A stretch of 64,000 bases of DNA from Eledone cirrhosa (taxonomy: Eukaryota), in the NCBI GenBank assembly GCA_964016885.1, contig OZ024742.1, positions 119,164,001-119,228,000 on the forward strand, written 5' to 3'. The notes beneath the pieces were generated by a model, which saw only the letters and a program-made list of their open reading frames with translations, did not search any database and had not been told where the DNA came from. Position numbers and translations under genes: made by a program. Within the stretch, counting starts at the first letter, position 1. Every line of letters begins with the position of its first letter. Positions 2,426-64,000 of this stretch are shown here, piece after piece.

Positions 2426-4400
2426 GTGTATGGCCCCACCCACCAGGTCCAGAGTCCCCTGCGCAGTTCAGATGGAGAGGACCTCCTCACCGATAACACC
2501 TCCATCCTCGCTCGCTGGTCCGAGCACTTCCAAAGCCTCTTCAGTGCTGACCGCACCGTACAGGACGCTGCCATCCATCGCGTTCATCAACTTCCACTCA
2601 AAGAGGAGCTCGACGAACCACCTACCCTCGAAGAGACGACTGAAGCCATAGAACAACTCAAGAGTCGCAAAGCAGCAGGAGTTGACAGCATCGCACCAGA
2701 AATCTGGAAGAATGGAGGTCCGACGCTCCACGACAAGCTACACGATTTTCTTGTCTGCTGTTGGGAGCAGGGTAAGCTGCCACAGGATCTTCGCGACGCC
2801 GTCATCATAACCCTGTACAAGAACAAGGGTGAAAAGTCTGACTGCTCCAACTACCGGGGAATCACCCTACACTCCATCGCTGGGAAAGTACTTGCCTGGA
2901 TCCTACTCAACAGGCTCGTACCAACCATCGCTGAAGAAAACCTCCCCAAGAGCCAGTGTGGCTTCAGAGCCAACAGAGGCACGACGGACATGGTGTTCGT
3001 CTTCCGCCAACTCCAGGAGAAGTGCCGAGAACAAAACAAGGGACTCTATGCTGCTTTTGTCGACCTCACAAAAGCTTTTGACACAGTGAGCAGGACAGGA
3101 CTATGGCTCATCCTGGAACGACTTGGCTGTCCCACCAAGTTTCTACAGATGGTGATCCAGCTGCACGAGAACCAGCGCGGCCAGATCAGACTCAACGGTG
3201 ACCTGTCGGAGCCCTTCCCCAACTCCAACGGCGTGAAGCAGGGTTGTGTCCTGGCACCGACTCTCTTCAGCATCTTCTTCAGCATGATGCTCAAGCATGC
3301 AACTGAGGATCTGGATGATGGGGATGGGGTGTATGTCAGGTACCGTATGGATGGCAGCCTCTTCAATCTACGGCGCCTCCAGGCCCATACCAAGACCCAG
3401 GAGAGGTTGATCCGAGACCTTCTCTTCGCAGATGACGCTGCCCTCGTCGCCCACACAGAGCGAGCTCTGCAGCGCATCACGTCCTGCTTTGCGGACCCTC
3501 ACGGCTCTTTGGTCTGGAGGTTAGCCTCAAGAAGACGAAGGTTCTTCACCAGCCTGCCCCCCAAGAAGAATACCGCTATATCACTATCTGCGATACCGAG
3601 CTGAAATAAACACAGCAGTTGACATACCTGGGCTGCATCATCTCATCAGATGCAAGGATCGACAAAGAAATTGACAACAGACTCTCTAAGGCAAATAGCT
3701 CCTTTGGCAGATTGTACAAACGTGTTTGGAACAACAAAAACCCGAAGAACAAGACAAGGATCAGCGTCTACAGGGCCGTGGTTCTCACCACTCTCCACTA
3801 CGGCTCGGAGACCTGGGTCACCTACCGCAGTCACATCCGTCTCCTCAAGCGCTTCCACCAGCGATGTCTCCGCACCATCCTCAACATTCGCTGGAGTGAC
3901 TTCGTCACAAACGTTGAAGTTCTGGAGCAGGCCGAGATCCCCAGCATTGAAGCCATGCTGCTGAAGTACCACCTCCGATGGGCAGGGCATGTCTCCAGAA
4001 TGGAGAACCATCGCCTTCCTAAGATTGCCCTGTTTGGCGAACTCTCCACCGGCCACCTAGAGAGAAGAGCCCCGAAGAAACGCTACAAAGACTGCCTCAA
4101 AAAGTCTCTCACCGCATGTCATGTTGACCACCATGTTGGTCAGACCTGGTTGCGGACCGTGATGGCTGGCGCCACAGGATCTTCAACGCGGTCAGCGAGT
4201 TTGAGGAAGACAGAAGAGACGCGCAAAAAGACAAGAGACGCAGAAGGAAGGCCCGAGTCGCCTCTGACACCACACCGGACGTTACCTTCATCTGTGGACA
4301 CTGCTCACGGACCTACCTTTCCCGCATTGGACTTGTCAGTCATGAGCATGCCTGCAGACGACGTGGACAACCTTCCTAATCTTCGTTCGCGAAGCCAAGC
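2426..4400 (+). pseudogene. RTE ORF, reverse transcriptase and C-terminal region (broken)
   Basis: [52 protein letters not shown]; frameshifts near 3495 and 4130, stop near 3607. Confidence 0.95.
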
Positions 4401-4689
4401 TATGATGATAACTATACTGAATATAGATGTTGGCACCAAATTGCGGTATAAGTATTGTTTCCATGATTAACCACTTATTGTTGTTCGGTATTCTATATAA
4501 TTGTTTCTACTTTTGGCACAAGGATGGCCATTGCACGATATACCATTATTAATAATTCTCAATTAATTCTATCGTGCAATGCCTGTGCATGAAGATATTT
4601 TTTAAAGTGAGGAAAGACTGTGCACTGAGCCAATCCCACTCTCTGGGCGAAAGAAAAAAAGATCAACACTATCGGTAACTAGTGAGCCG

Positions 4690-6476: not shown

Positions 6477-6481
<5 letters not shown>
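6294..6481. mobile_element. Asymmetric palindromic insert in (TA)n, same family as 16559-16732
   Basis: Arms 6397-6433/6444-6480, several mismatches; long arm extends to 6294. Confidence 0.75.
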
Positions 6482-6516
<35 letters not shown>

Positions 6517-6520
<4 letters not shown>

Positions 6521-6615
6521 ATAATAATAAATTTGAAGACCAAAATCCAAAGAGGTCTCGGTTAAAGGGTGAAAGCAGCGATTCTTTGCTTAAACTTTAA
6601 TCTGTTATTTTAATA
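6517..6615 (+). mobile_element. About 100-bp (TA)n-embedded repeat, also at 44214-44321 and 62871-62958 (opposite strand)
   Basis: AAGGGTGAAAGCA.CGATTC.TTGCTTAAACTTTAATCTG shared. Confidence 0.75.
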
Positions 6616-6630
6616 AATATATATATATAT

Positions 6631-7447
6631 ACTAGCAGTAAAGCCCGGCGTTGCTCGGGGTCGCTCAGTAGCTGTGTTAAAGTTACAATGTTAAGTTTCT
6701 TTTTTGGCTTAAAAACTGTAGTGTCTACTGTGCAGACTTGCATGTGATGTTTTTGATTAATATTCCCTCAACCAACAATATGCCTTATGAAGTTAAGAAA
6801 ACATAACGATAACCCGAATGTTATAACAAAAGAGGATGCTGGGGATAAAAACTGCACTGGTTATTTATTAACAAAGATCGAAAATGTAAACACTGCAACG
6901 CAGAGAAAAACATTAGCGTAACCAAATTATCAGTTATGTCTGTCTGCACGCCTATATCACCTCTCTGCACGACTGTCTGTCTGCACGCCTGAAATATTTG
7001 CTTGTTTTACGTAGTCTTTAAATAGACTTGTTTTCAAGTAAAAATATTGTTTTAAAATGCTTTTAAATGGAAATGAAGCAAAACGGAAGCTTAGTGTTCG
7101 AACTGATGAATTTTGCAGGTCAATATTTTGCTGGCTCGACAACTGTTCGTGTATTGTGTTAATGTCATTTTAAACGCTGAGAAAGCCAGCGTAATTTTTT
7201 ACGTAAGACGCTCAATGTAAACAGAACAAAGGGAAATAACTGATAACTTACGCTCAAAAGTCGATACATTATATTCGATTTCGTCACATAGGGTGGGTCA
7301 ATTTGAAATATTTTTTTTCCGATGTCTTCGCTAGGGCTCAATGTACAAGTATAGCAATTTCGGTGCAATTCCGTGAGAGATTCTAAGAGGAGATGTGTGC
7401 CAAAAATCGATAGACAGACAGACAACCACAGTTTTATATATATAGAT
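6631..7447 (+). mobile_element. Non-autonomous Helitron/Helentron-like element
   Basis: Begins ACTAG with GC hairpin CCCGGCGTTGCTCGGG; ends (GACA)n..TTTTATATATATAGAT, an architecture typical of Lep1/DINE-like elements. Confidence 0.55.
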
Positions 7448-14929: not shown

Positions 14930-16085
14930 ATAAAGAATTAAAGAAATGAAAAGTGGTGAGAACGCTGGATCGTGAGAAATAGTCGCTGAGATGTTAAAGG
15001 CATCAGGAGAAGTAGGAACTAAACTAGTTACACGCATAAGTCAATCAAGTTATATATGGTGGAGTCATACCCAAAGACTGGTGCAGCAGTATACTTGTTA
15101 ATTGTTACAAAGGTAAAGGGGATGCTCCTGAGAGGAGCAATTATAGGGGTATAAAACAGATGGATCAAGTTATGAAAGTGACAGAAAGAGTGTTAGCACA
15201 ACTAATTAGAGATAGAGTCAAATTAGATGAGATGCAGTTTGGTTTTGTGCTCGGGAAAAGTACAACAGATGCCATCTTCTTAGTGAGACAACTAGAAGAG
15301 AATTACTTAGGAAAGAATAAGCCACTATACCTAGCTTTTGTTAACCTAGAGGAGGCCTTTGATAGAGTACCTCCATCTGTCATCTGGTGGTCCCTAAGGA
15401 AACTAGGTTTAGAGGAATGGCTTGTGATGACAGTGCAAACTATGTATAGAGGAGCTGTCAGTAAAGTGAGGGTAGGAATGGAGTTTAGTTAGGAATTCCA
15501 GATACAAGTAGGAGTTCATCAAGGTTCGGTCCTCAGCCCACTTTTATTCATTATAGTTCTCCAAGCCATAACAGAGGAGTTTAAGACTGGCTGCATATCG
15601 TCTTTATGCTGACGATCTGATACTTATAGCGGAATCAGTAGAGGAGCTGGAGAATAAATTCCGGCTATGGAAACAGCAGTTGAAATCAAGGGCACTGAGA
15701 GTGAACCTAGCAAAGACTAAAGTGTTGATAAGTAGAAAAGATGACATGACTCTCATTCCACCAGGGAAATGGCCATGCTCGATATGTAGAAAAGGAGTTG
15801 GCATAAGCTCTATAGAATATACATAATGCAGATCTTGGGTACACAAGAGGTGTAGTGGGATAGCAGGCAAACTAACAGGAAAGGAAAATTTTGTATGTAG
15901 TTGATGTTCAGGGAAAATTGATAGTAGAAGAGTCAATGATAGGCACATTTTTCAAATGCAGGTAGGATCTATAGAGGTGGTTGAGCGCTTCCTAGTAGAA
16001 GGAAGTCGCAGTAGAGGACGACAAAGAAAGACCTGGGCAGAAGTTGTACAACCGTGGAAAAACCGGACACAAAAACGATGATGAT
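14930..16085 (+). pseudogene. Decayed RTE-like LINE fragment (RT plus Cys-rich insert)
   Basis: MQFGF..STTDAIF..AFVNLEEAFDRVP, GVHQGSVLSP, YADD, WPCSICRKGVG..WVHKRCSG; (ATG)n tail at about 16078. Confidence 0.88.
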
Positions 16086-24650: not shown

Positions 24651-27169
24651 TCTACCTGGAGTTGCGACCGATAGATAGTATTAGCAACTGGAAGATCGAC
24701 GGAAACATTGTTTCCTCGGTCCGATTTGACGAAAGTCGATCGATCCTTTCCTTTTTTGTGTGTATTGTTTTTACTAACAGCCTATCTTTCTGGAATTTGT
24801 TAGGATATTGTTTTGCATCCCTTTTACCTATTTTTTTCATTTGTTATTTTCCTTGCTTCTTACACCCCTTTCACCTAACTTTTCCATTTGTTTTTTTTTC
24901 CACTAACAGTTTTGTGTAGTCCCGTCTAAAAAACATGAAGTGCGGAAATGTTTATAGCAAATAAAGTGTTCAGGTACCTTTTGCAACTCCCCATTACCCC
25001 TTGCAGAATTGCCAATTGTTTCATTTCTACTCCACGTCAACACAAACAGTGGACTAAAAACGTTGCCTGGAACCTCGAGATAACTTTGTACTGGAATAGG
25101 AGACTTGTCTATCATACCATACATCCCATTAGTGATCACTTACTGATAATGAGGACGAGGTGATTTTATTTTTTCTGATCATCCGCGGATCGAAGAAAGT
25201 TGGTACTCTAGCAGGAGCAGCAGCCTTTTTCGATGTCACTGTGGTTTGTACGTCAGAAACCGATCGTTGTTGTTGCCATATTCTCCTTGAGATTAGTATA
25301 TAGGGAAAAGAGGAGTCAAATGATTATTTAATACCTATTACTTGCAGCGACAGGCTTCTGACATTCATGTAATAAATAATTATCCTTTTTAACACCCAAT
25401 TCACTATAAACGTAAATTTATTGTAGAAGGCCAAATTTCTATACACACAGTAGAATATCTCATATAGAAAACATAACGTAGAAGAACAATTCCAGAAATG
25501 TGGAACATGCTTTATTGATAAATGTTCAATTCCTCATAGCAGGATTATAGGAGGATCACAGTAGGAGTTATCCTGTAGTAGGTCTTTTCATCTCGCTGTC
25601 CAAGAGAGTTATCTCCCTGATGAACCAGAAGGTTTTATAATGAGGCGGCAACAATGTATTCATACGCGATCTAAAACGATTGGTTTGTTTAACCAAATCC
25701 CGTATGAAACATTGTTGCTGCGAGGTATGAAATAGTTCCGGTACAAGCACATTTCATCTTCAAATATGCAGGAGCACCAATCTATGAATCGGCGTTTATC
25801 GCACGAGTGTCCACTGTCTCCATGTCTGTTTTCAGCACCAGGCTTACTGTTCCATACCTATAACTCGTCCAACATAGTAAGCCTCTTGCAACACACAGGA
25901 ACGGGTCTCTGCCTCCGGAAACTTTGATTCATTCCTTGTTCGTTTATGAAGAAGAGTTATGTGGCCACCCTCCTGCATCACTCCTATGCTATGATAGTGT
26001 GGCGTGGTTCTTGGCTACATAACTCGCTCATCTTTTTTCCTTGCTCGAGATCTTCACATTTTCTCACACTTATAAGTTAGGATGTTATTGTTTTATGTTA
26101 TGTTTGTGTCTTTGTAGCTGTTGTTATTGCTGTCAACATTGACCAAGTTCCGGACCACCACCACCACCACCACTACCAACAACAACAACAACAAAAACCA
26201 CGACGTCGACAACAACAATAACAACAGATGGAAGTGACAAAACAGCAGCAACAACAACAACAGCAACAACAAAAACGACTGCAACAACAATAATGTCAAA
26301 CAGCTTCTAACATTGCTAAATACTTTTACCCGGTTTCAATTAGTTTTGTATTGTCACCCGTAGGAATCTTAATTCCTCTCACCTCAAACAATTTGTCCCT
26401 CTTCATAGTAAGGATACTTCCCTTATTAAATGCCGTATTTCATTCTCATGTCCTCGCTGAATACTTGTTTTTCTTTCATACTAAATAATTTCAGGTCAGC
26501 CATAATAGGTGGCTGATGTTTTGTTAAGATTTCTCTAATTCATATCTTGCTCTTACCTTTCTCAAGATATGGGTCATAGGGTTAAGACTGATTAAACAAA
26601 TAAAACTGATAAACTAACCCCGTGAAATATATATTTTTTTATCTTTACTTTTCCAAATTTCTCACCGTCAGACTTGAGTTGTCTCTCTTAGTGGCTCATA
26701 CTGTTTCTGGGGGAATGACTTCAAGTCATCGGCTACTTTGAATATACCCAAATATTCAATAATCCAGGAATACGGGACCATATCAGGTGCCTTTTTATAA
26801 TCAAGGTCATAATATGTATTCTTCTGGGAGACAGTCCCTTTCCTGTGTTATTTTCATGGAGCAGACATGTATCTAGAAATTCTTTGTGGCTCATCTCTCT
26901 ATCATAATTTATATTACTGCTATTAACAAGTTTCTTATTTTTCGTTTTACTCTTTTTTTCGTCGGCGCCATGTTTACAAATATTAATGAAAACTTCATTG
27001 ACAACAAAAATGTTTCACTGTGAAACGTGAAAACACGGAAAAGGATACCGTTTCTCTCCACGTAATCGATCCACACAAACACGAAACAAAATATCCATTG
27101 TGTAAAGTAATCCAAGATGTTTTTCTCAAATAAAAGAGCTTGCATTTTGATTCAACTCAAAACACAGCA

Positions 27170-27870
27170 ATAAGAAAAACAATAGCAGCAACAGTAACTA
27201 CAACAAAAACAGAAACAATAGAAGCAACAATAACTACAACAAAAACAGAAACAATAGAAGCAACAGCAAATACAACAAAAACAGAAACAATAGCAGCAAC
27301 AGAAACTACAACAAAAACAGAAACAATAGCAACAACAGCAACTACAACAAAAACAGAAACAATAGCAACAATAGCAACTACAACAAAAACAGAAACAATA
27401 GAAGCAACAATAACTACAACAAAAACAGAAACAATAGAAGCAACAATAACTACAACAAAAACAGAAACAATAGCAACAACAGAAACTACAACAAAAACAG
27501 AAACAATAGCAGCAAATACAACAAAAACAGAAACAATAGCAGCAACAGCAAATACAACAAAAACAGGAACAATAGCAGCAACAGAAACTACAACAAAAAC
27601 AGAAACAATAGCAGCAACAGAAACTACAACAAAAACAGAAACAATAGCAACAACAGCAACTACAACTAAAACAGAAACAATAGCAGCAACTACAACAAAA
27701 ACAGAAACAATAGCAGCAACAGAAACTACAACAAAAACAGAAACAATAGCAACAACAGTAACTACAACAAAAACAGAAACAATAGCAGCAACAGCAACTA
27801 CAACAAAAAACAGAAACAATAGCAACTACAGCAAAAACAGAAACAATAGCAACAACAACAAAAACAATGA
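27170..27870. repeat. 36-bp minisatellite (about 18 units, with shorter variants)
   Basis: Unit ACAACAAAAACAGAAACAATAGCAGCAACAGAAACT. Confidence 0.95.
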
Positions 27871-30136: not shown

Positions 30137-30357
30137 CGTAGGTCCCGGGTTGAGTCGGGGATAACCACAGTAAGTAAGGTACTCAATACATGGCAGAGTA
30201 AAATTTTTTTTATTTTATAGAAGGAGCTTCTACAGGACTAGTACTGTTTCATTCAGATGAAATCTTCAGGGTGTGTGAGGGTTTTCCCCCCTTAACTGTG
30301 CTTCCTGAAGATTTCATCTGAATGAAACAGTACTAGTCCTGTAGAAGCTCCTTCTAT

Positions 30358-30459: not shown

Positions 30460-30670
30460 AAGGAGCTTCTATATATATTATAGAAGGAGCTTCTATATAT
30501 ATATATATATATATATATATTTTATAGAAGGAGCTTCTACAGGACTAGTACTGTTTCATTCAGATGAAATCTTCAGGATGTGTGAGGGTTTTCCCCCCTT
30601 AACTGTGCTTCCTGAAGATTTCATCTGAATGAAACAGTACTAGTCCTGTAGAAGCTCCTTCTATAAAATA
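30137..30670. mobile_element. Duplicated hammerhead-bearing palindromic insert in (TA)n
   Basis: Hairpin 1 arms 30211-30270/30304-30363; hairpin 2 about 30518-30670; long arm (minus) to 30137 matches 35855-35915 (plus). Confidence 0.9.
30300..30348 (+). ncRNA. Type I hammerhead (second copy 30607-30655)
   Basis: Stem I GCTTC/GAAGC; CTGAAGA; stem II T-TTC atct GAA-T; GAAA; stem III CAG/CTG; GTA triplet. Confidence 0.8.
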
Positions 30671-34984: not shown

Positions 34985-35020
34985 TCTTCTGATGAAGGAC
35001 TAGCGTCCGAAACGTTAAGA
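34985..35020 (+). ncRNA. Minimal type I hammerhead of PLE pseudo-LTR type
   Basis: TCTT-CTGATGA-A-GGAC tagc GTCC-GAAA-CGTT-AAGA; palindromic AACGTT stem III; about 85 nt upstream of (CA)n. Confidence 0.8.
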
Positions 35021-35365: not shown

Positions 35366-35412
35366 CCCATTGCAGTTTCGTTGAGCATTGTGAAAACCTC
35401 AACTCATCAGGG
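35366..35412 (-). ncRNA. Type I hammerhead, slightly decayed
   Basis: CC-CTGATGA-GTTGAG..CTCAAC-GAAAC-TGCA-AT-GGG. Confidence 0.7.
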
Positions 35413-35577: not shown

Positions 35578-36025
<448 letters not shown>

Positions 36026-39970: not shown

Positions 39971-40506
39971 TATTATGAAATAATTAATGTAACTGACTTA
40001 AATAGATCTAATTTATAGGTTATTCAATTCATGCTTATGGATTTCTTGCTGTTCAGTTTAAGACGACCATTCATTATTTTATAGATAATACTTTTAGAAT
40101 TAAAAAAACATTCCCGTTATTCATTTCTATATTCATAGCCCTGAACATGTTGATCAGATTCTCACACAATCATAAAGTAGCTTTTGTTCACTCTATCTTA
40201 GATTATTTTATTGACGTCATTTGTCGTTGTCCCGCTTCGATATCAAGCATGTTTTCCATTATATGTCGTCCCTAGATCTTCATATAATATTGAGAGACAT
40301 GTAATCTGCTGATTATCTCGTTATGATAAACAAGTACCTTTTGTGATACTGATGAATCATACTAATGTTTCACACAGAAACGTATCATTTTGGTGAAAAT
40401 GTTCACCTTGACATTGTTTTCTATAAAATAAAGATGAGGCCTTAAATAGAGTTTTATTTAAACTCATCATACTTTCAAGTGGATAAAAGCCATCAATCAG
40501 GTTTTA

Positions 40507-43942: not shown

Positions 43943-44318
43943 TTGATTAACATATAAATAAACATATGAAACAATCACAGGGGATAATTTTTACAAGTGT
44001 ATAAGCACACATAGCTAGGTAGGTAACTAAATAAAGTTAACTAGAACTTCAAAAATAGATACCTATTCATTAGAATCTTGGAGCTTATTTTACGAGTGAT
44101 ATGGCGCATGCCTTTCTGGCATGACACCCATAATTTTGATTTAGATTAAATTCATTTTGATTTATCTTAATTTTGGATATATATATATATATATATATAT
44201 TAAAATATATATTTATTAAAATATCAGATTAAAGTTTAAGCAAAGAATCGGTGCTTTCACCCTTAACGGGATCTTTATCGAGCCCTCTTTGGATTTTAGT
44301 CTTCAAATTTATTATTAT

Positions 44319-44379
<61 letters not shown>

Positions 44380-44413
44380 TATTTATTAAAATAAATTAAA
44401 GTCTAGTCTTCAC

Positions 44414-45113: not shown

Positions 45114-45151
45114 CGAGAACAATTGTTTCACCATAGCGGATCCTCAGCTCG
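45114..45151 (-). ncRNA. Minimal type I hammerhead
   Basis: CGAG-CTGAGGA-TCC gctat GGT-GAAAC-AATT-GTT-CTCG; about 100 nt upstream of (TA)n(TG)n on the minus strand. Confidence 0.8.
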
Positions 45152-46288: not shown

Positions 46289-46299
46289 TATATATATAT

Positions 46300-46853
46300 A
46301 TAAGGAAAAGAAAATCGAAAATGCAACTGGAGTCTTTTTAAGAATATGTTACAAAGTTCTTATTGTGTTTGCCTTTAAAAATGTGGCTCAAATTGTTTTT
46401 TTTTATTTTTTATATATAAGTGAAATTTGATTGGTTGATAACTGTTACGGGAATAAGTACATAAAATTTCGCGCCAGTTCGTATTTTGTTTTTTTTTAAG
46501 GCAAACACAATAAGAACTTTGTAACGCAAACTGGCGCGAAATGTATTATACTTATTCACGTGACAGTCAGTAATCAACCAACCAAATTATTTTTGAAAAA
46601 AACCCCTCGCAATTCGAGCCACTTGTTTCCACATAAAACAGAAGTAACATTCGAACACCAACCAGATGTGAGAAAAACCACAAACCCTCCATCTCAATTC
46701 TACTTTTGAAAAGCATAAGAATTGTGAAAACAGTAAAGGAAACAAATACATATTCTTAAAAAGACTCCAATTGCATTTTTGATTTCTTTTTCTTATACTT
46801 TCACACGTGTAGGGCATCTCGTTTTTTTTCATAAAAAAAAACTAATTTTCTTT
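46300..46853. mobile_element. Multiply inverted insert, same family as 52208-52570
   Basis: Inverted pairs 46300-46349/46748-46797, 46348-46376/46496-46525, 46425-46480/46529-46586. Confidence 0.82.
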
Positions 46854-46886
46854 TATATATATGTATGAGATTGTGTGTATATATAT

Positions 46887-47070
46887 AATTGTTTCTACGT
46901 TTTGGCACAAGGCCAGCAATTACTCAGTACATTACTGGTACTTTATTTTATCGACCCCGTAAGAATGAAAGGCAAAGTTAACCTCAGCGGGATTTGAACT
47001 CAGAATGGCAAGGGCCGTAACTTCTATGCGTCAAAGCATGGCGTCCGACCCTCTACCGATACTGCCAATT
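46887..47070 (-). mobile_element. Family A SINE, near full length
   Basis: Head, B-box, core, tail. Confidence 0.88.
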
Positions 47071-49918: not shown

Positions 49919-50004
<86 letters not shown>

Positions 50005-50052
50005 CGAAATTGACATATAATATTACAAAGAACGTGATATATATATAAATGA

Positions 50053-50093
50053 CTTCTACTAGAACTGGTTCATTCGTATGAAATCATCAGGAA
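50053..50093 (-). ncRNA. Decayed hammerhead, family of 30300/35790
   Basis: TTC-CTGATGA-TTTC atac GAAT-GAAC..TA-GAAG between (TA)n tracts. Confidence 0.6.
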
Positions 50094-50110
50094 TGTCAGT
50101 ATATATATAA

Positions 50111-50159
<49 letters not shown>

Positions 50160-51829
50160 TAAGTATGTATGTATGTATGTATGTATACGTACAACTATAT
50201 ATGTATACAGACGTACAGTAGTATGTATATATATGTATACAGACGTACAGTAGTATGTATATATATACATACATGCACACATATTATATATGCACGTATC
50301 GGTCTACCGAACATTTATTATAATGCTCGGTTTGTTTGTTTGGTTGCCGGTCAAGCAGAAATTGAAAATTAGAATTGTTGCTCTGAAATAGCTATATATA
50401 TATGAATGTATATACAGTGTATTTTGCAATACACTGTATGCTCAATTAAAAGCATTTCGAAGACCTTATGCTATTATTTTAGAGTAGTGACAGACTCACT
50501 TACTTTAATTTCAGCAAACAGGGGGAGATAAAGCTGACAAGGCCTTGTTTCGCATTTATTGATGTTTATCAAAGCCAACTACTCCTCCTGTTTGCTGAAA
50601 TCATGAATGTTTGGTTCTTATAGAATTCTAGTAATAATCAGGCAGAAATTCCCGACAGATGGAATGGCTCTTCCAGCGCATCTCCCCCATCCTCCTCCGG
50701 GGAAACGCCTTCTCGGCCAGCACGTGGGATCCCATTTGCTCACAATACAGAGAGTACGGCTCTTCCGTGTTTGGACACATTGCATCTGTCATGTGGATCA
50801 TGTGATAATTTCATTATTCTGTCCCCCACCCCCCTGTACTATCAACTTATAATCTCTCTCACTAGAATAAAAGTTATTCCATTCGTTAACACGTTTTATT
50901 GTATAGTAGGCAATATGTTGTCCAATATATTCTTTATTTAAGAAGGTAGGGTGTTATTTAAAGGAAATTTACAGTGGTTGCGTAGAAGCTTCCTGGTCTC
51001 AAATATTGTCCAGCAGCAACAGAGAAGACTACATTTTCATCAGAAAATGTAGTCTTCTTCTTTGTTTCTCTCTTTTATATTTTTTAAAGTTCTTCAGTGC
51101 GGTGCTTAGTGTAACTCCAAAGAGATGGCTAGTATAAGAAACGATGTGAGGTATAGTATAAGTTACTGGTATAGGTGATGAGATAAAGAGATGGCAATGT
51201 CTTAGTTACATAATAGATATATTTACACAACTCCAATATAATAAGGATTATGGATTATTTAAATCATTTTAATTCAATAAAATAACATCTGAATAGTATT
51301 ACAGAAAAACGAGGGCGTGGACCGAACCACAGAGGCAGAATTGCTAATACTATTTATTGGTTGCAACTCCTGACAAGAAGCAACGTGAAATAAAGTATTT
51401 TGCTGAAAAACACAGCGTGCTGCCCGGTTCACCGGTTCAAGAAACGAACCCACGTAATTATGATCGTTAGTTCAACACATTAACCATTAAAAACTATAAT
51501 TTTATTCTAAATACACTTAACTCAATTTTCATATGTCTTAATTGAAAAATGGACATAATTTCATTGTAAATATTTTCATTGTAAACGAAAGATGGTACAT
51601 TGGTACTTCACGTAAAGTATAATCAAGATGATTGAAATGTTTTACAGTATTTTGAAATGAAATACTTGGTAGATGCTTGATAATATAATTATTAATATAT
51701 TTCTTTATTTCGACCTTACGACTTTCCTATCTTAGGAATTTCTGTACTAACTGATGATTGTTGATAAATATGGATAATCAAGGTCTAAGTTGTGATTAAG
51801 AAGTTTGTTACGAAACCATAAGGTTTGGA

Positions 51830-52019
51830 TTCGCGACTTGGCGGTATATAGAAGTGCCTGGAGGCGGGGTTTCCCAAGGATCACCTGGCGACGAACAATC
51901 AGGAAGGACCTGATGGTGGTCAACGTCACCTGGCAAGGTCTCGGAAAAGTTGCCGCTGATCGTGACCGTTGGCGAGTACTTACTGCTCGATGCGCCGAAC
52001 GGCGCGGAAGAATCTAAGA

Positions 52020-52021
<2 letters not shown>
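51830..52021 (+). pseudogene. RTE C-terminal fragment
   Basis: RRGFPRITWRRTIRKDL..W..AADRDRWR. Confidence 0.75.
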
Positions 52022-52102
<81 letters not shown>

Positions 52103-52207
52103 ATATACCCTATTGAGAGCTTAGCTGCACACCGGGACTGCATTCGTTAGCTTGGCTGCAACCAGAGCTTCGTTGATGCTGTACTAAATTTTGTATATAT
52201 ATATATA

Positions 52208-52564
52208 TATAAAGAAAAAAAGATGAAATCGAAAATGCAACTGGAGTCTTATTTTAAAAAATATATATATATTTATTTGGTTCCTTTACCGGTTTCGCAG
52301 TTCTTCTGCTTTTCAAAAGTAGAGTTGAGATGGAGGGTCTGTGATTTTTCTCACATCTGATGTGAGAAAAACCACAGACCCTTCATCTCAACTCTACTTT
52401 TGAAAAGTAGAAGAACTGCGAAACCGGTAAAGGAACCAAATAAATATATATATATTTTTTAAAATAAGACTCCAGTTGCATTTTCGATTTCATCTTTTTT
52501 TCTTTATACTTTCACTCGTGTAGGACACCTCGGTTATTTTTCATTTTGTAAAAAAAAACCTCAC

Positions 52565-52570
<6 letters not shown>
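52208..52570. mobile_element. Asymmetric palindrome in (TA)n: 150-bp arms, 1-nt spacer, about 3 mismatches
   Basis: Centre T52358; contains GC-GAAAC-CG-GTA (hammerhead 3' half with palindromic stem III); plus arm extends to 52570. Confidence 0.92.
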
Positions 52571-52613
<43 letters not shown>

Positions 52614-52674
52614 TATATTATTCAAAATATTAATAAATGAAGACGTTCACATAATCAAAATATATGTTTTATTA

Positions 52675-52722
52675 TATATATTTACTGTGCTGTTTTTTCA
52701 GTACGTCCTCATCAGATAAAAT
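52675..52722 (-). ncRNA. Possible degenerate hammerhead at the 3' end of the split PLE
   Basis: CTGATGA-GG acgta CT-GAAA; stems I and III weak; about 70 nt from (TA)n. Confidence 0.4.
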
Positions 52723-52925
52723 ACATAAATTGATGTACGACATACCTCAACTGTCTTGATGGTTTAATTTCAGTCTTGGCAGTGATTTATTACAACAAAA
52801 CTCTATGTTTATATGCCACATGAAGGAATAACATGACAAACTAAATATGATGAAGAGAGGGAAATAAATAAACACATAAGTACATAAATGTTAAAATATT
52901 TAAATATTCATGTCAGAGAAGAAAC

Positions 52926-53004
<79 letters not shown>

Positions 53005-53912
53005 TGCTAAATAGAAGAGAGGAGGGAAATTAAATAAAATGAAGATAAAAAGGAGGGAGAGGGAGATAAAAGAGAGGATGGAATACATAACTGCAACAGG
53101 AAAGAAAGAAAGAAAGAAGAAAGGGACATGATGCGTGACAATTGTTTTCAAATATTAAGTCAGGTAGAAGCGACCAATTAAATAGCGTTAAAATTATTAC
53201 TATCTATTGTTATGTTTGAGCGAAATTATACTAATATAGTAAATCGAAATAAAACAATATGAAATATTTTCAATGATAATCAGAAGTATAGTTAAATTAA
53301 TAAATATATTCAATATTTTGTTACAAAATTCAAAATCAGAAACATTTAACCTACAAATAAAGTTTACAAATATAGTAAATATGTATGAGTATATTTATCA
53401 TAACTTAATCGCATATCACCATCTGTATATGCATTTTATATAATGTTTAGAATTATTAACATTATAAACATTACAAACCGTTTAAATCAATAGTTGTCAA
53501 TTACATATAGGATTAATTAATAGTTATATTTCTTGAAAGTATTATTATTTCGAATCAACCCAATCCTACTACAGTATAAATTATGTTAAATATACATTAT
53601 TAATCGATTTGGATAAAAACGAAAATTCTATACGATAAATGTAAACAAATGAGCTCCGTACAACATATCTGATCTTTTAAATTAGCTAAATGCTTTGAAA
53701 GCTAGGAGATATTTCAAATCACAAATTTAGAAAATTCCAGTTATACAAAGACGATTTTAAAACCGAACTAAAGGTATTTAGTCAATCATGAAATTAACTC
53801 ACCATATAAAAGAGCCAATATGCAATTTCATAAGGTAAGGTAAAACATTATACATAATAACAACGGTAGCATTTCAAGAATTATTAATAAAAGTCAATAT
53901 TTTTTCACTCAT

Positions 53913-54360
53913 TCAGGGTTTTTTTCTAAATTTAAATGATGCTTGAAATGATTTTCCAGATTTATGGAGGCAAGTTGCAAATAATTCATTTTTCTTATTA
54001 ATTAAATTACCATAATTAGTAATTATTAATAGAGTTTCCAAATTGCAAAGATGGCAGATTGGCGAGATGGAAGCATTCCGATATGATTCAGACTTTCTAA
54101 GAAATTGAGTATTTTATATTTTTTTCTTTTAAAGACCATATTAATTGTGATAACGAAGTAGAATATTTTTTATGTGGATTAGAGAAATAATGTTTATGAT
54201 TGGAAAAGCCAAGTCTAAAGTTCGATGAAGTTGCACCTATGTAGTTATAAGTAATATTATTATTTGTTTTAATGGTACATTTATATACTAAATTTTTATC
54301 AAGGCAATTATTTTGTAAAGGGCATTTAGATTTCCTTCTACAGTTACAGTTCGATTCAAA
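53913..54360 (-). pseudogene. GIY-YIG endonuclease domain of a Penelope-like element (Hydra-clade-like), absent from the ORF track
   Basis: Manual translation: CNCRRKSKCPLQNNCLDKNLVYKCTIKTNNNITYNYIGATSSNFRLGFSNHKHYF..STSLSQLIWSLKEK, stop and frameshift, then CHLCNLE..LINKKNELFATCLH. Confidence 0.88.
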
Positions 54361-54461
54361 GATTTCGATAACCTAAACTGTTCGTATTATCATTGTTAAT
54401 GTTTCTATGTGTTCCACTATATCTGTTTAAATGATTGTTATTGTTATTCGCATTAAATACT

Positions 54462-54527
<66 letters not shown>

Positions 54528-54528
<1 letters not shown>

Positions 54529-57500
54529 AGCTGCATTTATCTTGCTTTATGTTCATACGAGTTATCACCAAGTATCAACCAGTGACCTCAAGAGACAACA
54601 AGGTCCGCCATGTTCAAGAAAGAACATACATACTCACACATGCATCTTTAGTGTTTAGACTTGTGATGTACTTATATTGACAGAATCTTCCTTAGTATAT
54701 GGGCAGTTCCCATTAGTACTATCTTTTGTATTTCTCCTATACGCGGGTTTCCTGGGATTTGCGATAAGTAATCATTAGACCCCTTAGGTATCATTCCTAG
54801 AGCGCCTACAACCACTGGTATTGTTTTAGTTCTCAATTTCCACATTTTTCCAATTTCTATCTCCAGGTCCTTATACTTGCTCAATTTTTCAAATGTTTTT
54901 ATAGATACATTCTTGTCTATTGGAACGGACATATCAATTAGCAGGCATACCCTCTTTTTAAAGTCCTTCAATATTATATCAGGTCTATTTGCATCTATTT
55001 TTCGGTCTGTTTGGATGCTAAAGTTCCACAAGATTGAGATGTGATCTTTTTCAAGTATGGGAGGTGGTTGATGCTCCCACCAATTCTTTTGATGGGGCAG
55101 GTCATAATGCTTACACATTATCCAATGCATGTATTGTGCAGCTCTGTCATGCCTGTTTAGGTATTCGGTTGGAGCTATAGGACTGCACATTGAAATTATA
55201 TGGTCAATGGTCTCGGGTTGTTTTTTACATACACGGCATAATGGGCTGCATCCATTTTTTATTATGTTGGCTTGGTAATTTTTTGTTGGCAGACACTGAT
55301 CTTGTGCTGATATAATCAGTCCTTCAGTCTCCGATTTCAGTCCAGAAGATGCCAACCACTGATGGGTTAAAGTTTTGTCAACATCAGGATTGTTAGCTCG
55401 TTCTGGGTATTTTCCATACAGAGGCTTTTCTTGCCATTTCTTAGCCAGTTTCTGTAGCAGTTCTTTCTTTGCAGTTACTTTTACCTGCTTTGCTTTTTCT
55501 GTGTTTTCCATTTCAGCAGTAAATGGGACTTCTGAAATTTGTAGTCCATTACTGTATCGTTGTGCATCTTTTGTAATGGAGTATGATCTTTTGATGCTTT
55601 CGTGTTTCAAAACGAGTTTGATCATCAAATCATGTGATTCCCTTAGATATGTAGATAATCCAATTGTTGCAGTTTTCAACGCAATGTCTAACTGGATTAA
55701 CCCACGTCCTCCTTCTTTCCTAGGGAGATATATTCTATCTATATCTGCCTTAGGGTGATGCATTCTGTGCATGGTTAGGAATTTTCGAATTTTTGTATCG
55801 AGCCTACGGATCTCTGTGCTTGACCAGTTGATGACATTGTAACTGTAGGTTACTACTGGTATGGCAAGCGTGTTTATGGCATCGATCCTATTCCTTGCAT
55901 TCAATTCCGTTCTTAAGATTGCTCTTACTCTGCGGTAACATTCCTTCCTTATCCTTTCCCTCATTGTCGAGTGCTTGATTCCGTCTCCTTCACAAACACC
56001 TAGATATCTGTAAGTTTCCTCTTGATCAAGTTCTCTTATCACGTTCCCTCGATGAAGATTAATGTCTGAACTTTTCAGCAGCTTTCCTCTGGTGAACGTT
56101 GCTTTGGCGCATTTATCTAGTCCAAACTCCATTTTAATGTCATCACTGAACTGCTCCACAGTGGATAATAGCCCTTGCAATTGTTCATCATTTTTTGCAT
56201 ATAGTTTCAGGTCATCCATTTAGAACAAGTGATTAATGGTTTTGTCATAGACTTTATATCCATGTTTTGTTTCATTGAGCATTTTACTTAATGGTATAAG
56301 TGCGATGCAGAATAAAAGCGGTGATAAAGAGTCACCCTGAAAAATTCCACAATTAATATTAACTTCTCCAGCTTCCAGTGATTTTGTTTCACTATTCAAA
56401 AGGAGTGTCGTTTTCCATGTCTTCATACTGAATGACAAAAACCTCCTGACAACGGGGGATATTTTGAAAATCTCTAAACATTTTTCAATCCAACTGTGTG
56501 GCAAACTATCGAATGCTTTTTTATAATCTATCCAAGCAATCGATAGATTTTTGTGTCTATTATGACAATCTTCCAGTATCATTTTGTTAACCAGAAGCTG
56601 ATCCTTACAGCCATATGAGCCTCGTTTACACCCTTTCTGCTCAATGGGAAATAGGTCATTTGTTATCAGGTGGTCATATGTGTATTCAGTTAGGACTGAT
56701 GTTAAAATTTTATACATTGTGGTCAAGCAAGTTATCGGTCTGTAATTTTTGGGATTGTTTGTCTCATCATTCTTCGGAAGCAGGAATGTAATGCCGTTAA
56801 CTAGCCATGATGGTATCTTTTCTGGCTCCTTAACTATTTCATTGTAAAGTTGGGCTAACAGCTCATAAGACTCTGTGAAGGCATTTATCCAAAAGTTTTG
56901 TATTTTGTCTTTTCCTGGGGATTTCCATTTGCTGGTTTTTCTTAGAGCCAAGCGCAACTGTTCAACTGTTATATTTCCCATATTTGTTCCTCAAGGTGAG
57001 CTGTATCTTTCATTTGTCTGTCTATCCTTGGGGCATGTATGTTATGAACTTTTTCTTCGGCCCAGATCTTTTCCCAGAATTCTTGCACTTCCTCCTTGGG
57101 TGGTATTGATTTAGCAGTTATTGTTGACTTACCAATTTTTCTGTAGAAGTTTCTTTGGTTGTTTTTGAACATATTATTGTCCTTATAGAATCTAGATCGT
57201 TTTTCAAAGCGCCTTATACGAGCAGCTTTGGCCGACACTTTTTGTTTGATTATTTCTATCAGCATGTCTATGTCACTTGTTGATTTTATACTGTACTTTT
57301 TTTTCAATTTTCTAAGTTTAGTTTGTTTAACATGTTCACCTACTTTATAGTTTGTTAAAATTTCTATGTCAGATCGGAGAAGGTTTATTTGGCGGTTGAT
57401 GTTCTCTTGCCAAGTAGATTTCTTGTGCGAATTCCTTTGTTTTTTCATCTTCACTCCACATAAGTGAGTGGTGACTTTAGCCGATGCATAATAGAGATGA

Positions 57501-58417
57501 TTTAAATCAGTAATGTTTAGTTTGTTTGTGATGATAATGTTTTTGAGAATTATGTTAGTCTTGTGTATTATCTTTTGGTTCTGTTTGGAGTTCTGGATCT
57601 TAGGGAGGGTGTCTGGTTGCCCCATGTCAGATTCTTTCATTTTCATCCATTCGATCATAATTTCATCCTTCAAGTTGGCAAGTTCATTCTCATTCATTTC
57701 TTTATCATTTACGATCTCATTATTTTCATTTTGAGTTTCATCTTGAGCATGCACTCCCTCCACTTTTTCGATCCTTTCTTTAATTTGTTCTGTTGCCAGT
57801 GATTCCGCCCCAACCCTGGGATTCGAAGTGTTACAATTTACCTCGTTTTCACTGACACGTGTTTCATTTTCCCTTCGCTGACTTTGTGCTAATAGCTTGA
57901 TGTGATCAATTTCTATATCAGTTAGTAACTTTTTTCTTACAATATTTCTTCGTATATTGGCTAGTTTGTTGCTGTCAATATAGCCTCTGTTTTCGGGATG
58001 TTTCTTTTTCCAGTTGATATATGTCTGTTCTGTATTCGATGTATTTGATGGGTAGTACATGGCAGTGTAGAAAGCCTCAAGGACTTCTTTATTATCTTCC
58101 CTTGACCATTTTTCTCTCTTTTTCTTTGGATTTCTTGGTGGTGAGCATGGAGGGCCAACAGTAGGAGTATTCCGGTTATGGGAGGTCTCCAGCTCCGAAG
58201 TGATGGGAAGGTTTGAACCATTAGCTGATTTTTCGGCCCCAGTCTGGTTCCTCTCTGAGGGACGCGGCCCTTTTTTACCCGGGTGACGGCCGATCCAGTA
58301 TGAGATTTTATCATTAGACATTTACTTTATTTTGTCGCGTTTTATCCTTATCCGCCAAGGGGTAATCATTTCGTGTTACCACTTCTAGAACGAGTGTCAA
58401 CCAAGACTAGAGGGGTC

Positions 58418-58418
<1 letters not shown>
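54528..58418 (-). mobile_element. Apparently full-length R4/Dong-type RLE non-LTR retrotransposon in (TAA)n
   Basis: Single long ORF with RT, CCHC knuckle and PD-D endonuclease; (TTA)n at 54463-54527 and 58419-58454. Confidence 0.92.
54672..58321 (-). pseudogene. R4/Dong ORF with one frameshift (about 56975) and one nonsense codon (56220-56222, Y of YMDD)
   Basis: WKSPGKD, NYRPITCL, WIDYKKAFDS, GIFQGDSLSP, LF*MDD, CRVC..HIISMC, RPDIIL..IDMSVP..KLSKY. Confidence 0.95.
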
Positions 58419-58454
<36 letters not shown>

Positions 58455-58455
<1 letters not shown>

Positions 58456-60049
58456 AGTTGCATTTATCTTGCTTCATGTTCATACGAGTTATCACCAAGT
58501 CACAACCAGTGACCTCAAGAGACAACAAGGTCCGCCATGTTCAAGAAAGAACATACATACTCACACATGCATCTTTAGTGTTTAGACTTGTGATGTACTT
58601 ATATTGACAGAATCTTCCTTAGTATATGGGCAGTTCCCATTAGTACTATCTTTTGTATTTCTCCTATACGCGGGTTTCCTGGGATTTGCGATAAGTAATC
58701 AATAGACCCCTTAGGTATCATTCCCAGAGCGCCTACAACCACTGGTATTGTTTTAGTTCTCAATTTCCACATTTTTCCAATTTCTATCTCCAGGTCCTTA
58801 TACTTGCTCAATTTTTCACAATGTTTTTATAGATACATTCTTGTCTATTGGAACAGACATATCAATTAGCAGGCATACCCTCTTTTTAAAGTCCTTCAAT
58901 ATTATATCAGGTCTATTTGCATCTATTTTTCGGTCTGTTTGGATGCTAAAGTTCCACAGGATTGAGATGTGATCTTTTTCAAGCATGGGAGGTGGTTGAT
59001 GCTCCCACCAATTCTTTTGATGGCGCAGGTCAAAATGCTTACACATTATCCAATGTATGTATTGTGCAGCTCTGTCATGCCTGTTTAGGTATTCGGTTGG
59101 AGCTATAGGACTGCACATTGAAATTATATGGTCAATGGTCTCTGGTTGTTTTTTGCATACACGGCATAATGGGCTGCATCCATTTTTTATTATGTTGGCT
59201 TGGTAATTTTTTGTTGGCACACACTGATCTTGTGCTGATATAATCAGTCCTTCAGTCTCCGATTTCAGTCCAGAGGATGCCAACCACTGATGGGTTTTGT
59301 CAACATCAGGATTGTTAGCTCGCTCTGGGTATTTTCCATACAGAGGCTTTTCTTGCCATTTCTTAGCCAGTTTCTGTAGCAGTTCTTTCTTTGCAGTTAC
59401 TTTTATCTGCTTTGCTTTTTCTGTGTTTTCCATTTCAGCAGTAAATGGGACTTCTGAAATTTGTAGTCCATTACTGTATCGTTGTGCATCTTTTGTAATG
59501 GAGTATGATCTTTTGATGCTTTCGTGTTTCAAAACGAGTTTGATCATCAAATCATGTGATTCCCTTAGATATGTAGATAATCCAATTGTTGCAGTTTTCA
59601 ACGCAATGTCTAACTGGATTAACCCACGTCCTCCTTCTTTCCTAGGGAGATATATTCTATCTATATCTGCCTTAGGGTGATGCATTCTGTGCATGGTTAG
59701 GAATTTTCGAATTTTTGTATCGAGCCTACGGATCTCTGTGCTTGACCAGTTGATGACATTGTAACTGTAGGTTACTACTGGTATGGCAAGCGTGTTTATG
59801 GCATCGATCCTATTCCTTGCATTCAATTCCGTTCTTAAGATTGCTCTTACTCTGCGGTAACATTCCTTCCTTATCCTTTCCCTCATTGTCGAGTGCTTGA
59901 TTCCGTCTCCTTCACAAACACCTAGATATTTGTAAGTTTTTTCTTGATCAAGTTCTCTTATCACGTTCCCCCGATCAAGATTAATGTCTGAACTCTTCAG
60001 CAGCTTTCCTCTGGTGAACGTTGGTTTGGCGCATTTATCTAGTCCAAAC
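58455..60049 (-). mobile_element. 5'-truncated second copy of the same R4/Dong family
   Basis: Aligns with 54528-56128 with scattered substitutions, a 6-bp deletion near 59293 and a frameshift near 58816. Confidence 0.95.
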
Positions 60050-60090
60050 TTATTATTATTATTATTATTATTATTATTGTTATTGTTATT

Positions 60091-62458
60091 CCTTGAATCT
60101 CAGTCATTGATGTTGGTTAACTGGAAAGTCCGTTGGATTGAATATCAAGCCACTACCTGCAGCCTCAGATATTCAGGACGTATCGGTGGGTTCTTGCTGT
60201 TCCCAGCAAGCATGCCTTTTGAAGCGTTCCAAAAAGCGTGAAGGGGCCGATTTTCTTTAACCATCCTTGGAAACTTTTTGAGATAGTACCTAGTGCACCT
60301 ATGACAATCGGGACCAATTTGACTTCATGGCAGTTCCAATTCCTTTTTACCTCCCACTTTAAGTCCTGGTATGGGTTAATTTTCTCCCTCTCCTTCTCTT
60401 GCACTCTCGTGTCGAATGGGCAGGCCACATCCACAATCAGGCACGATCTTTTTTCTTTGTCCACAACCACCAGGTCAGGTCTATTGTGTTCCAGTTTCTT
60501 GTCCGTCTGTATCCTAAAATCCCACAGCACCTTCACCTGATCGTTTTCTATCACCGACTCTGGCTTATGCTCATACCACTTCTCAGCATGTGGTAAATTG
60601 TTTACTTTGCATAGGTGCCAGTGGACCACCCTGCCCATCACATCATGTCCCCAGCCCTTATAGTGAGTCTGGGCTAGGTGTTTACACTCGGATACAATGT
60701 GAGCCACAGTCTCCTCTCTCTCTCCACAGATCCTGCACAGTGGGATAGCCTCCTCCTTGTAAATATGGTGTTTCAACCACTTCGTTTTGTGGGCCTGCTC
60801 TTGTGCAGCCATTAACATTCCTTCTGTAGCCTTTTTAAGGTCTCCTCTTTTCAACCAGTTCCATGTCTGTGGATCTCTGAATTCAGTTTTCTCAAAGAAG
60901 GTACTAAGAAGGGATTTTTCCTGAAGGCTGCTCTTTCTCCTTGTTATTTCCTCCTTGGACATCCCCTGGTTTATTGTCCTCTCCTTCAGTACAGTTCTGA
61001 GCATTGGCTCCTTACTATCAGTCACGTATTTGTGTAGGTTGTTTTTCTCCATCTGAACACAGTCCTCTATGCTGATAAGACCTCTTCCACCTTCAGATCT
61101 CCTTAAGTAGAGTCTATCGACATCACTCCTCTTGTGGAACGTGTTGTAGATACTCAATAGCTTCCTAGTCTTCCTATCCATTTCTTTTTGTTCAGCAACA
61201 TTCCATCTCAGAATTCCCGCACTGTACCTAATAATAGACACAGCTCGGGAATTTACTGCACTTATGGCATTCCTACTGTTCAGATGTGACTTTAATACGC
61301 TCCTTACTCTCCGAATGTATTCAGTTCTTATCAATTCCTTCATTTTTTTGTTCTTGATGCCATCAGTCTCCAGAACACCCAAATACTTGTATCCCTCCTC
61401 AGTGTCAATCTCCTTTATCATCTCACCTCTTGGTACCTGGATTCTGTTATTTCTGCTCAATTTACCCCTCTTCATCACAAGGACTCCACACTTACTAATA
61501 CCAAATTGCATACATATATCATTGCTGAAAATACGGACAGTGTCAACAAGCACATCCAACTCCTTCTCACTCTTCCCGAAGAGCTTAAGATCGTCCATGA
61601 AGAGGAGGTGATTGATAGTAAGCTCTCCCTTTCCCAACTTGTATCCTGCTCTCACTTTTCGCTGTATAATGGTCAGGGGCATCAGGGCAAGGACAAACAA
61701 CAGAGGGGACAGACTATCTCCCTGGAAGATACCTCTCTTGATCTTCACGCCTCCCAAGGATTCTCCAGCTGATGTTAACTCTGTTTCCCAGGACTTCATA
61801 TTTTTGCCCAACAACTGTCTGATGTTATCTGCCACCCTGAAGATCTCCAGGCTTTTGGTGATCCAACAATGGGGCACCATGTCAAATGCCTTTTTGTAGT
61901 CTATCCATCCCATGGCAAGACCAGTGTGTCTCCTCTTGCAATTCCTCATTACCATCTTATCAATAAGTAACTGGTCCTTTGTACCACGGGACTTCTTTCG
62001 GCATCCTTTCTGTTCGTCCGGTAACAAGTTGTTTGTGTGGAGGTGATGGTAGATTTCCTCAGACATAATGCTTGTCAACAGTTTCCACATTACGGACAGA
62101 CATGTGATAGGTCTATAGTTGGTAACATCATTACCCTTGATTCGGTCTTTCATTATCAGAACTGTGGTACCTTTTGTCAACCACTCTGGCACCTCACCTG
62201 ACATCAAGCAGTCATTGAACATGGTTGTCAGTTTCGGGTGGAGGGATGTTATATTTTTAATCCAATACCCCTGTACACCATCTGGGCCTGGTGATTTCCA
62301 GTTGGTTAGTTTTTTGGCCTGCCCCTTAAGAGTTTCAACTGTGATACTCAAATCAGTTTGTTGGTGTGCCTGTTCACTAATCTCCTTCTGTACTGTCTCA
62401 ATCCACACTGCCTGGTGTTTAACATCCTGCTCCCATATTCCTTTCCAGAATGTTTTAG

Positions 62459-62462
<4 letters not shown>
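60091..62462 (-). mobile_element. 5'-truncated R4/Dong element of a second family
   Basis: Different 3' UTR and protein; (TTA)n at 60050-60090 and 62463-62532. Confidence 0.92.
60165..62408 (-). pseudogene. Uninterrupted 747-codon RT-RLE frame of the truncated second-family element
   Basis: WKSPGPD, GIFQGDSLSP, LFMDD, CRIC..HIVSEC, RPDLVV..VDVACP. Confidence 0.93.
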
Positions 62463-62532
<70 letters not shown>

Positions 62533-62745
62533 GAATATTGTGTTTATAATTACTATTATTTTTATCTACATATTCAATATTATTTTTATATCCTGCTTTA
62601 TGTAACGCTTCATTATAGTATCCAGCATTAGTATTAAAAATAGATTTGTTAGCAGATAATCTAGTTATACTTTGTTGAACACTATTGACTATTAACACTT
62701 TTAGGATGATTAGAATAAAAACTAACATAATTTAGGTTTTCATTA
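62533..62745 (-). pseudogene. Penelope-like RT C-terminal (thumb) fragment
   Basis: NENLNYVSFYSNHPK, frameshift, then SITRLSANKSIFNTNAGYYNEALHKAGY, matching the PLE pattern Y..SNHP..RLS..F..Y..AL..GY. Confidence 0.78.
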
Positions 62746-62763
62746 GATTAAATATATATATTG

Positions 62764-62877
<114 letters not shown>

Positions 62878-62973
62878 TAACAGATTAAAGTTTAAGCAAT
62901 GAATCGCTGCTTTCACCCTTAACGACGGGATCTTCTGGAACTAAAAAAGTCAATCTGTATATATATATATATG

Positions 62974-63830
<857 letters not shown>

Positions 63831-63873
63831 AAATGAGGGTTTCTTAAATGAAAAAAAACCGGATGTCCTAGAC

Positions 63874-64000
63874 CACAGGTTCTCAACCCATTTAGGCCAA
63901 ACGCCCCCTTTTGTCCCTCGAAATCACGAAACGCCCCCCTTCCCACCCTATTTTTCCATTTTTAAATATACTACTGATTTTTATATCAGTAGATTACTAA
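63874..64000 (+). mobile_element. Probable left end of a hAT (Charlie-like) MITE
   Basis: CACAGGTTCTCAACC after TCCTAGAC, repeated subterminal AAACGCCCCC; other end outside the window. Confidence 0.45.

Follow-up and report, generated by a model that had tools for sequence, protein, structure and literature searches.

Here we present a nested set of retrotransposons in a 64-kb stretch of Eledone cirrhosa DNA (GCA_964016885.1, contig OZ024742.1, positions 119,164,001 to 119,228,000), which contains no N and is referred to below as the window; positions count from its first letter. Between 52571 and 62872, two pieces of Penelope-like element (PLE) sequence flank a stack of three putative R4/Dong-type elements, designated A, B and C. 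Read along the minus strand, the locus begins with (TA)n (62752-62872) at the PLE 5' truncation point, followed by a 220-nt, 5'-truncated piece of a Hydra-type PLE reverse transcriptase (RT) thumb (62532-62751, with the motifs SNHP..RLS..AGY and a frameshift near 62690). Next are (TAA)23 (62463-62531), element C (~60091-62462), a repeat composed of (TAA)9 (60050-60076) and imperfect AAY units to ~60090, element B (58455-60049), (TAA)12 (58419-58454), element A (54528-58418) and (TAA)21 (54465-54527). Beyond (TAA)21 lie an Asn-rich linker (54352-54464; Asn at 13 of 34 residues) with a 2-nt frameshift near 54360, the CxCx5C linker motif with the N-terminal half of a GIY-YIG-type endonuclease (EN), ending in a stop and then a frameshift (54097-54351), and the C-terminal part of the EN, with the pattern CxxC..E..N..CxH (53913-54098). 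The PLE closes with a 1.3-kb AT-rich 3' region (52619-53912), which includes (AG)37 at 52929-53002, and the (TA)n target microsatellite at its 3' end (52571-52618). This order, from (TA)n to (TA)n on one strand, is as described in an earlier reading of the window made from its letters alone, hereafter the sequence-only reading. Four of the five runs of at least six TAA units in the window are element junctions of the stack.

The three inserted elements occupy 54528-62462 (7.9 kb), all on the minus strand, and fall into two families. Each combines an RT with a CCHC knuckle and the motifs of a restriction-like endonuclease (RLE; RHD/GHD, RPD..D..P). Element A is near full length, with an N-terminal domain ahead of the RT, and carries a stop at 56220-56222 and a frameshift with a gap near 56975-57020. 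Element B, a 5'-truncated member of the same family with one frameshift, is 98.4% identical to A, with 25 substitutions and 2 indels over 1594 columns. Its start corresponds to an internal point of A and stands immediately after a TAA run, as expected of an independent truncated insertion. An origin of B through slippage, as a tandem copy of A, was rejected, since A has no TAA run at the position of B's start and the two differ at 25 sites. Element C represents the second family; it is 5'-truncated, has 765 open codons, and shows 36-58% amino acid identity and no blastn match to A. Pfam RVT_1 matched both A (E 1e-17) and C (E 8e-24), and the best PDB matches of C were R2 proteins (E 1e-30). 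Homologues of C numbered 1928 at E<=1e-50 among 8000 scored candidates, with identity up to 68% and nearly all of them unnamed; 32 pattern matches to its relatives in viral contigs yielded none that was confirmed. N-terminal C2H2 zinc fingers like those of R2 are not known from R4/Dong elements, and a pattern search found no such finger in the N-terminal open reading frame (ORF) of A or in any of 86 full-length homologues. All six ends of A, B and C adjoin TAA repeats, and TAA microsatellites are given as the target of Dong in passages of two reports (PMC3812793, PMC3774820). Thus A, B and C appear to be R4/Dong-type elements with a (TAA)n target, as the sequence-only reading had proposed, an assignment that draws on architecture, target and motifs.

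Dong-R4 elements are described as widespread and recently active in cephalopods (parts of PMC8967140 and PMC13282606), and in Octopus vulgaris as abundant, with five families and 1129 insertions (same section of PMC13282606). An HDV-like ribozyme has been reported at the Dong 5' end (in a passage of PMC3774820). Rfam gave no match to one in 50000-64000, and the minimum free energy fold of the 5' end of A (58320-58420) was no more stable than those of shuffles (z +1.2), by a method that is blind to pseudoknots. Elsewhere in the window, an R4-like RT fragment (26302-26805, minus strand) is 28-37% identical to the homologues of C and adjoins (CAA)n at 26177-26290; it is possibly a related element with another target.

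The flanking PLE pieces were characterized through the homologues of the CxCx5C/EN piece, which numbered 2626 at E<=1e-3 by HMMER; statistics on PLE homologues refer to the best 150 of these. The CxCx5C motif lies in an ORF at 54097-54372, and in a 60-sequence alignment its cysteines are invariant or nearly so and the YIG, H and helix motifs of the EN are conserved. Downstream, CHLC..E..N..CLH within 53913-54113 aligns with the homologues. The Hydra clade of PLEs is defined, in the portion of PMC8557442 that treats it, by CxCX5C, by CxxC and CxH around E and N, and by insertion at (TA)n, with RWK and DKT motifs and no IFD as criteria for the RT. The RT core is absent from the 5'-truncated copy; the full-length homologue P0127 has RMRWK and DKT. 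The remaining features, including the (TA)n flanks, match the clade definition, so that the PLE pieces appear to be of the Hydra type, in agreement with the earlier assignment. Among named homologues, the closest seen is a partial protein of Argonauta hians (P0085), with 37% and 48% identity to the two flanks.

The GIY-YIG nature of the EN was less evident in general searches. Pfam GIY-YIG did not match the EN piece of the window and matched P0085 weakly (E 0.0023). The EN piece also had a sub-threshold match to Pfam NTNH_C (E 0.005), taken as compositional. A structural model of the N-terminal half (pLDDT 91) gave fold matches at background level only, among them the GIY-YIG nucleases T4 EndoII (Z 3.6, root-mean-square deviation 3.1, 65 aligned) and Hpy188I (Z 3.1), and a profile search of PDB sequences gave no match. 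Word-based searches with the EN piece drew no match from proteins of similar or greater length, which is weak evidence given the 2626 relatives found by HMMER.

Using a profile built from 12 homologues with the window sequence excluded, we obtained three matches that are collinear, on the same strand and without overlap: the thumb (model 58-125 at 62686-62477, iE 1e-6, where beyond about model 100 the Asn run alone is aligned), the CxC motif and EN (model 184-274 at 54360-54088, 2e-34) and the EN end (model 282-324 at 54071-53946, 2e-5). The PLE pieces also share a composition, with a GC content of 22-27% versus 38-44% in the Dong elements, and a third-position GC of 0.14-0.21 in thumb and EN versus 0.37-0.53. 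Furthermore, both outer runs, (TAA)23 and (TAA)21, are in the AAT (Asn) phase of the adjoining PLE frame. It is therefore likely that the two PLE pieces belong to one copy, on the strength of order, strand, phase and composition.

What lies between the thumb and the EN is incomplete. In the homologues, two variable linkers, the first of them short, separate the thumb from the CxC motif, and between these linkers stands a conserved block (WFNPP...KIFN...SYSC...HN). Measured in 12 proteins, WFNPP and CxC are 72-185 residues apart, in most cases about 75. This block of ~70-80 codons is missing: no W[FY]NPP, KxSYS or KIFN was found in any of the six frames of the window. Among 16 thumb-bearing homologues it is in place in 14, the exceptions being P0128, which has a permuted junction, and P0082. 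The latter, an unrelated Hydra-type ORF found as an ENA singleton, passes from model 100 to 182 with nearly the same break points as the window copy, and thus the same deletion can recur with no poly-Asn run in evidence. Judging by P0082 and the window copy, the part of the PLE that separates its two linkers may be deletion-prone. A model of the thumb-to-EN region of another homologue, P0120, was of low confidence outside the EN (mean pLDDT 60).

Since the middle block is absent, the left and right TAA runs belong to two different linkers. (TAA)23, an in-frame continuation of the thumb as poly-Asn, lies in the post-thumb linker, and (TAA)21 beside the pre-CxC linker. The sequence-only reading had suspected that part of the thumb-to-EN segment was missing, which agrees with the absence of the block; its larger proposal, of a single poly-Asn run split by the stack, is not supported in that form. 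Removal of the stack in silico accordingly gives a thumb-Asn-EN fusion and no intact ORF.

Data from another source, designated organism A, bear on where the block was lost. For 53005-54488 they comprise 721, 662 and 688 contigs from runs X1-X3 (one sample) and 346 reads from X5; the records considered are the best-supported 24 of ~2090, together with 24 of 443 loose ends. The segment is a multi-copy family in organism A, whose contigs run across the stop region (e.g. 53879-54016). Five contigs of X3 support a loose end behind 54352 that has the SLGYRN codons of the window in frame with CxC and is 2 nt longer. Likewise, records 7, 16 and 24 cross the 54360 site with a gap of 2 letters, and record 8 extends to 54420. 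The right-hand linker is thus the native pre-CxC linker of other copies. The frameshift near 54360 was rejected as the junction of a large deletion, because in other copies the frame continues across it, and the window lacks 2 nt at that place. With the frameshift a small indel and the right linker native, the loss of the block maps to the run and the stack.

Decay of the PLE copy is advanced. Its coding pieces carry 4 lesions in ~0.8 kb, versus 3 in ~7.4 kb of the Dong elements, a density from which the copy was likely dead before it was hit by Dong. In X1, other letters outweigh those of the window at 35 of 40 listed places, a comparison that is confounded if organism A is another species. 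If the copy died first, the relation of one parasite to another at this locus is incidental unless it holds family-wide.

The reading we favour, which we hold to be probable though far from certain, is that of one dead, 5'-truncated Hydra PLE copy whose AAT-rich linkers provided the (TAA)n target for three successive Dong insertions, with a block lost between the Asn-rich linkers. In such a sequence of events, the PLE would have inserted into (TA)n, truncated at its 5' end within the thumb, and then decayed. AAT codons of its low-complexity linkers would have expanded into a (TAA)n run, or already have been one; outside the perfect runs, Asn still makes up 4 of 12 residues of the post-thumb linker, against the 13 of 34 noted for the pre-CxC linker. 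Some 70-80 codons would then have been deleted by the joining of two AAT-rich stretches, either ahead of the first Dong insertion or in the course of it. Finally, the Dong RLE would nick the run and prime reverse transcription, and further copies would stack, each TAA-bounded copy renewing the target for the next. The left run precedes the 5' truncation point of C and is thus likely older than the insertion of C, and the right-hand run may partly be Dong's own tail. Dong is here most likely a general microsatellite-targeting element and not a specialist on this PLE.

Several observations weigh against this reconstruction. The homologues share only 23-51% identity with either flank, a distance too great to establish a single family, and an uninterrupted copy of the same family was not seen. 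The claim of the sequence-only reading that the pieces form a single PLE with a C-terminal EN has collinearity, a common strand and a shared GC content on its side, and stops short of proof that they are of one family. The 3' region, at 1.3 kb, exceeds the length read by eye from six published Hydra consensi, a few hundred bases. In addition, the alignment of organism A covers the right flank and skipped 54430-54488 as a repeat, and the best organism A run shares 35% of the window's words, so that organism A may belong to a related species.

Among the alternatives, the one that fares best is that an active PLE family has in-frame (AAT)n, coding for poly-Asn, in its linker or linkers, and that Dong inserts into its copies time and again and kills them; in its fullest form, poly-Asn in both linkers would be a mobile landing pad that carries TAA targets to (TA)n sites, where Dong stacks, the copy dies and the block is removed. 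Both runs are in the Asn phase, which is expected in 1 of 9 cases by chance if they are independent, both linkers are Asn-rich, and the probable precedence of the left run over C fits as well, as do loose ends of organism A at 54348 and 54351 that are Asn-rich beside the CxC motif. The homologues point the other way: their longest Asn run is 4, with maxima of 2 in 12 post-thumb linkers and 3 in 45 pre-CxC linkers measured. Six published Hydra consensi show by eye no long Asn run; the one from octopus, Hydra-1_Obim, which is another family, also keeps the block, again by eye. In organism A, the contig type of records 7, 16 and 24 departs from the window sequence at 54398 and continues for 161-174 letters. 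A search for (AAT)4..WFNPP gave a single match in metagenome contigs (L001), rejected as fortuitous because the contig is not a PLE; prokaryote genomes gave none, and both collections are poor in animals. Given also that the window copy was likely dead first, we regard such a family-wide landing pad as unlikely. The parasite-on-parasite relation advanced in the sequence-only reading is most likely not a dedicated one, given the longest homologue Asn run of 4, the likely prior death of the copy and the lost middle block.

The flanks could instead derive from two PLE copies or families, in tandem or neighbouring within one (TA)n region, and have been joined by deletion across TAA runs. Several related Hydra-type families are present in organism A, with different loose ends at 54348-54352, and PLEs are known to form tandem and partial-tandem insertions (described in a passage of PMC8557442), of which P0128 is such a permuted junction. 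We nevertheless judge this origin improbable, as it leaves to coincidence the exact collinearity without overlap, the same strand and the same composition, and the pieces have neither a second EN nor a second 3' end between them. Least probable is that Dong inserted once into each of two AAT runs of a complete copy and that Dong copies or TAA runs then recombined, with loss of the PLE sequence between them: this would explain both the loss at the stack and the two different linkers, and A and B at 98.4% identity are suitable substrates, but it needs two long runs in one copy, a chimeric breakpoint is undemonstrable with two copies, and P0082 lacks the block in a lineage without Asn runs.

The 3' region of the PLE copy holds a degenerate hammerhead core with ill-formed stems (52696-52715, minus strand; CTGATGA...GAAA), 97 nt from the 3' (TA)n. 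Hydra hammerheads lie ~100 nt from the 3' end (in the relevant part of PMC8557442). The core did not pass the type I descriptor, had no Rfam match at E<=10 and gave a fold z score of -0.07; over 50000-64000, Rfam returned no hammerhead, the matches being hairpin or TA-repeat artefacts below gathering scores. The weak hammerhead noted here earlier is thus a core at a Hydra-typical position, but degenerate. Elsewhere in the window there are 12 CTGANGA..GAAAC cores, versus 0.69 expected. Five of the 12 pass the type I descriptor, which 0-1 did in each of 20 shuffles, and four of these five have the Hydra-style tGAA-ACA.. form; the fifth (16946) was discarded on inspection as a TA-repeat artefact. 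Well-formed Hydra-like type I hammerheads are located at 30246-30328, 30553-30635, 35762-35816 and 45125-45147, and three of these sites are fold-back pairs near simple repeats. They are likely pseudo-LTR remnants of another PLE family, and by blastn none of the other hammerheads in the window resembles the 3' region of the PLE copy. A PLE origin of animal hammerhead repeats has already been proposed (10.64898/2026.07.22.740005). The Hydra-type clade is a plausible and fair candidate for the mobiliser of hammerheads, and to this extent the earlier suggestion holds; the window copy as their source is unsupported, its 3' region having no sequence link to them. Cores that fail the descriptor stand at 63165-63189 (minus), 34989-35013 (plus), 35375-35410 (minus) and 40349-40381 (plus), and the core at 63189 belongs to a different TA-flanked element that runs off the end of the window.

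Other repeats surround the locus. A TA-flanked short repeat family, 80-88% identical, occurs at 6481-6631, 44177-44386 and 62833-63044, the last copy lying directly beyond the (TA)n at the PLE 5' end, and TA-flanked repeat ends at 44309 and 44416 resemble the last bases of the PLE (GTCTTCA..TTTATTA). Just outside the 3' (TA)n, a near-perfect fold-back spans 52217-52505, and the same repeat recurs at 46665-46887 and 46289-46349; this fold-back was the source of spurious microRNA matches in Rfam. Also present are remnants of long interspersed nuclear elements (LINEs) with APE and RT domains at 1097-4470 and 15040-15573, both on the plus strand, which by their motifs we take to be RTE-like, and a 36-bp minisatellite of 18.6 copies (27177-27834) in which several frames are open.

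Hydra PLEs, Dong-R4 elements and TAA targeting have all been published, and the locus most likely records an ordinary nested insertion, with an Asn-codon microsatellite as the target. It offers a clear example of nesting, in which Dong elements that target (TAA)n, in a stack that renews itself, have entered a PLE that targets (TA)n. The locus also contributes one Asn-rich family of Hydra type and two families of Dong type, which should be useful for repeat annotation. We found no description of Dong inside a PLE ORF in the open-access literature, although supplements or Repbase entries may hold one. If the Asn tracts belong to an active PLE family, the codon usage of one element would supply and spread the target of another; and were the landing pad real, codon usage would have created a family-wide dependence of one retroelement on another.

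The window copy resembles Hydra-clade PLEs (Craig et al. 2021, PMC8557442, in the sections describing the clade) in its CxCx5C motif, its C-terminal EN with CxxC and CxH, its (TA)n flanks, its thumb motifs and a hammerhead core ~100 nt from the 3' end. It differs from them in being very AT-rich, with Asn-rich linkers, a longer 3' region, a 5' truncation, a missing block and a degenerate hammerhead, and by eye it is not of the Hydra-1_Obim family of Octopus bimaculoides. As with non-LTR elements that target transposons, of which Tx1 is an example, one mobile element sits in another through a sequence preference; unlike in those, the preference here is for a generic microsatellite, with no sign of specificity for this PLE. 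Both transposons and microsatellites are known target classes of sequence-specific non-LTR elements (as set out in part of PMC4640811). Elements A, B and C are like Dong of Bombyx mori, DongAg, DongBg and the cephalopod Dong-R4 elements in having a single ORF with RT, CCHC and a PD..D..EK RLE, and TAA at both ends. Unlike the Dong elements described, they stand as three copies of two families stacked in one run inside the former ORF of another retroelement.

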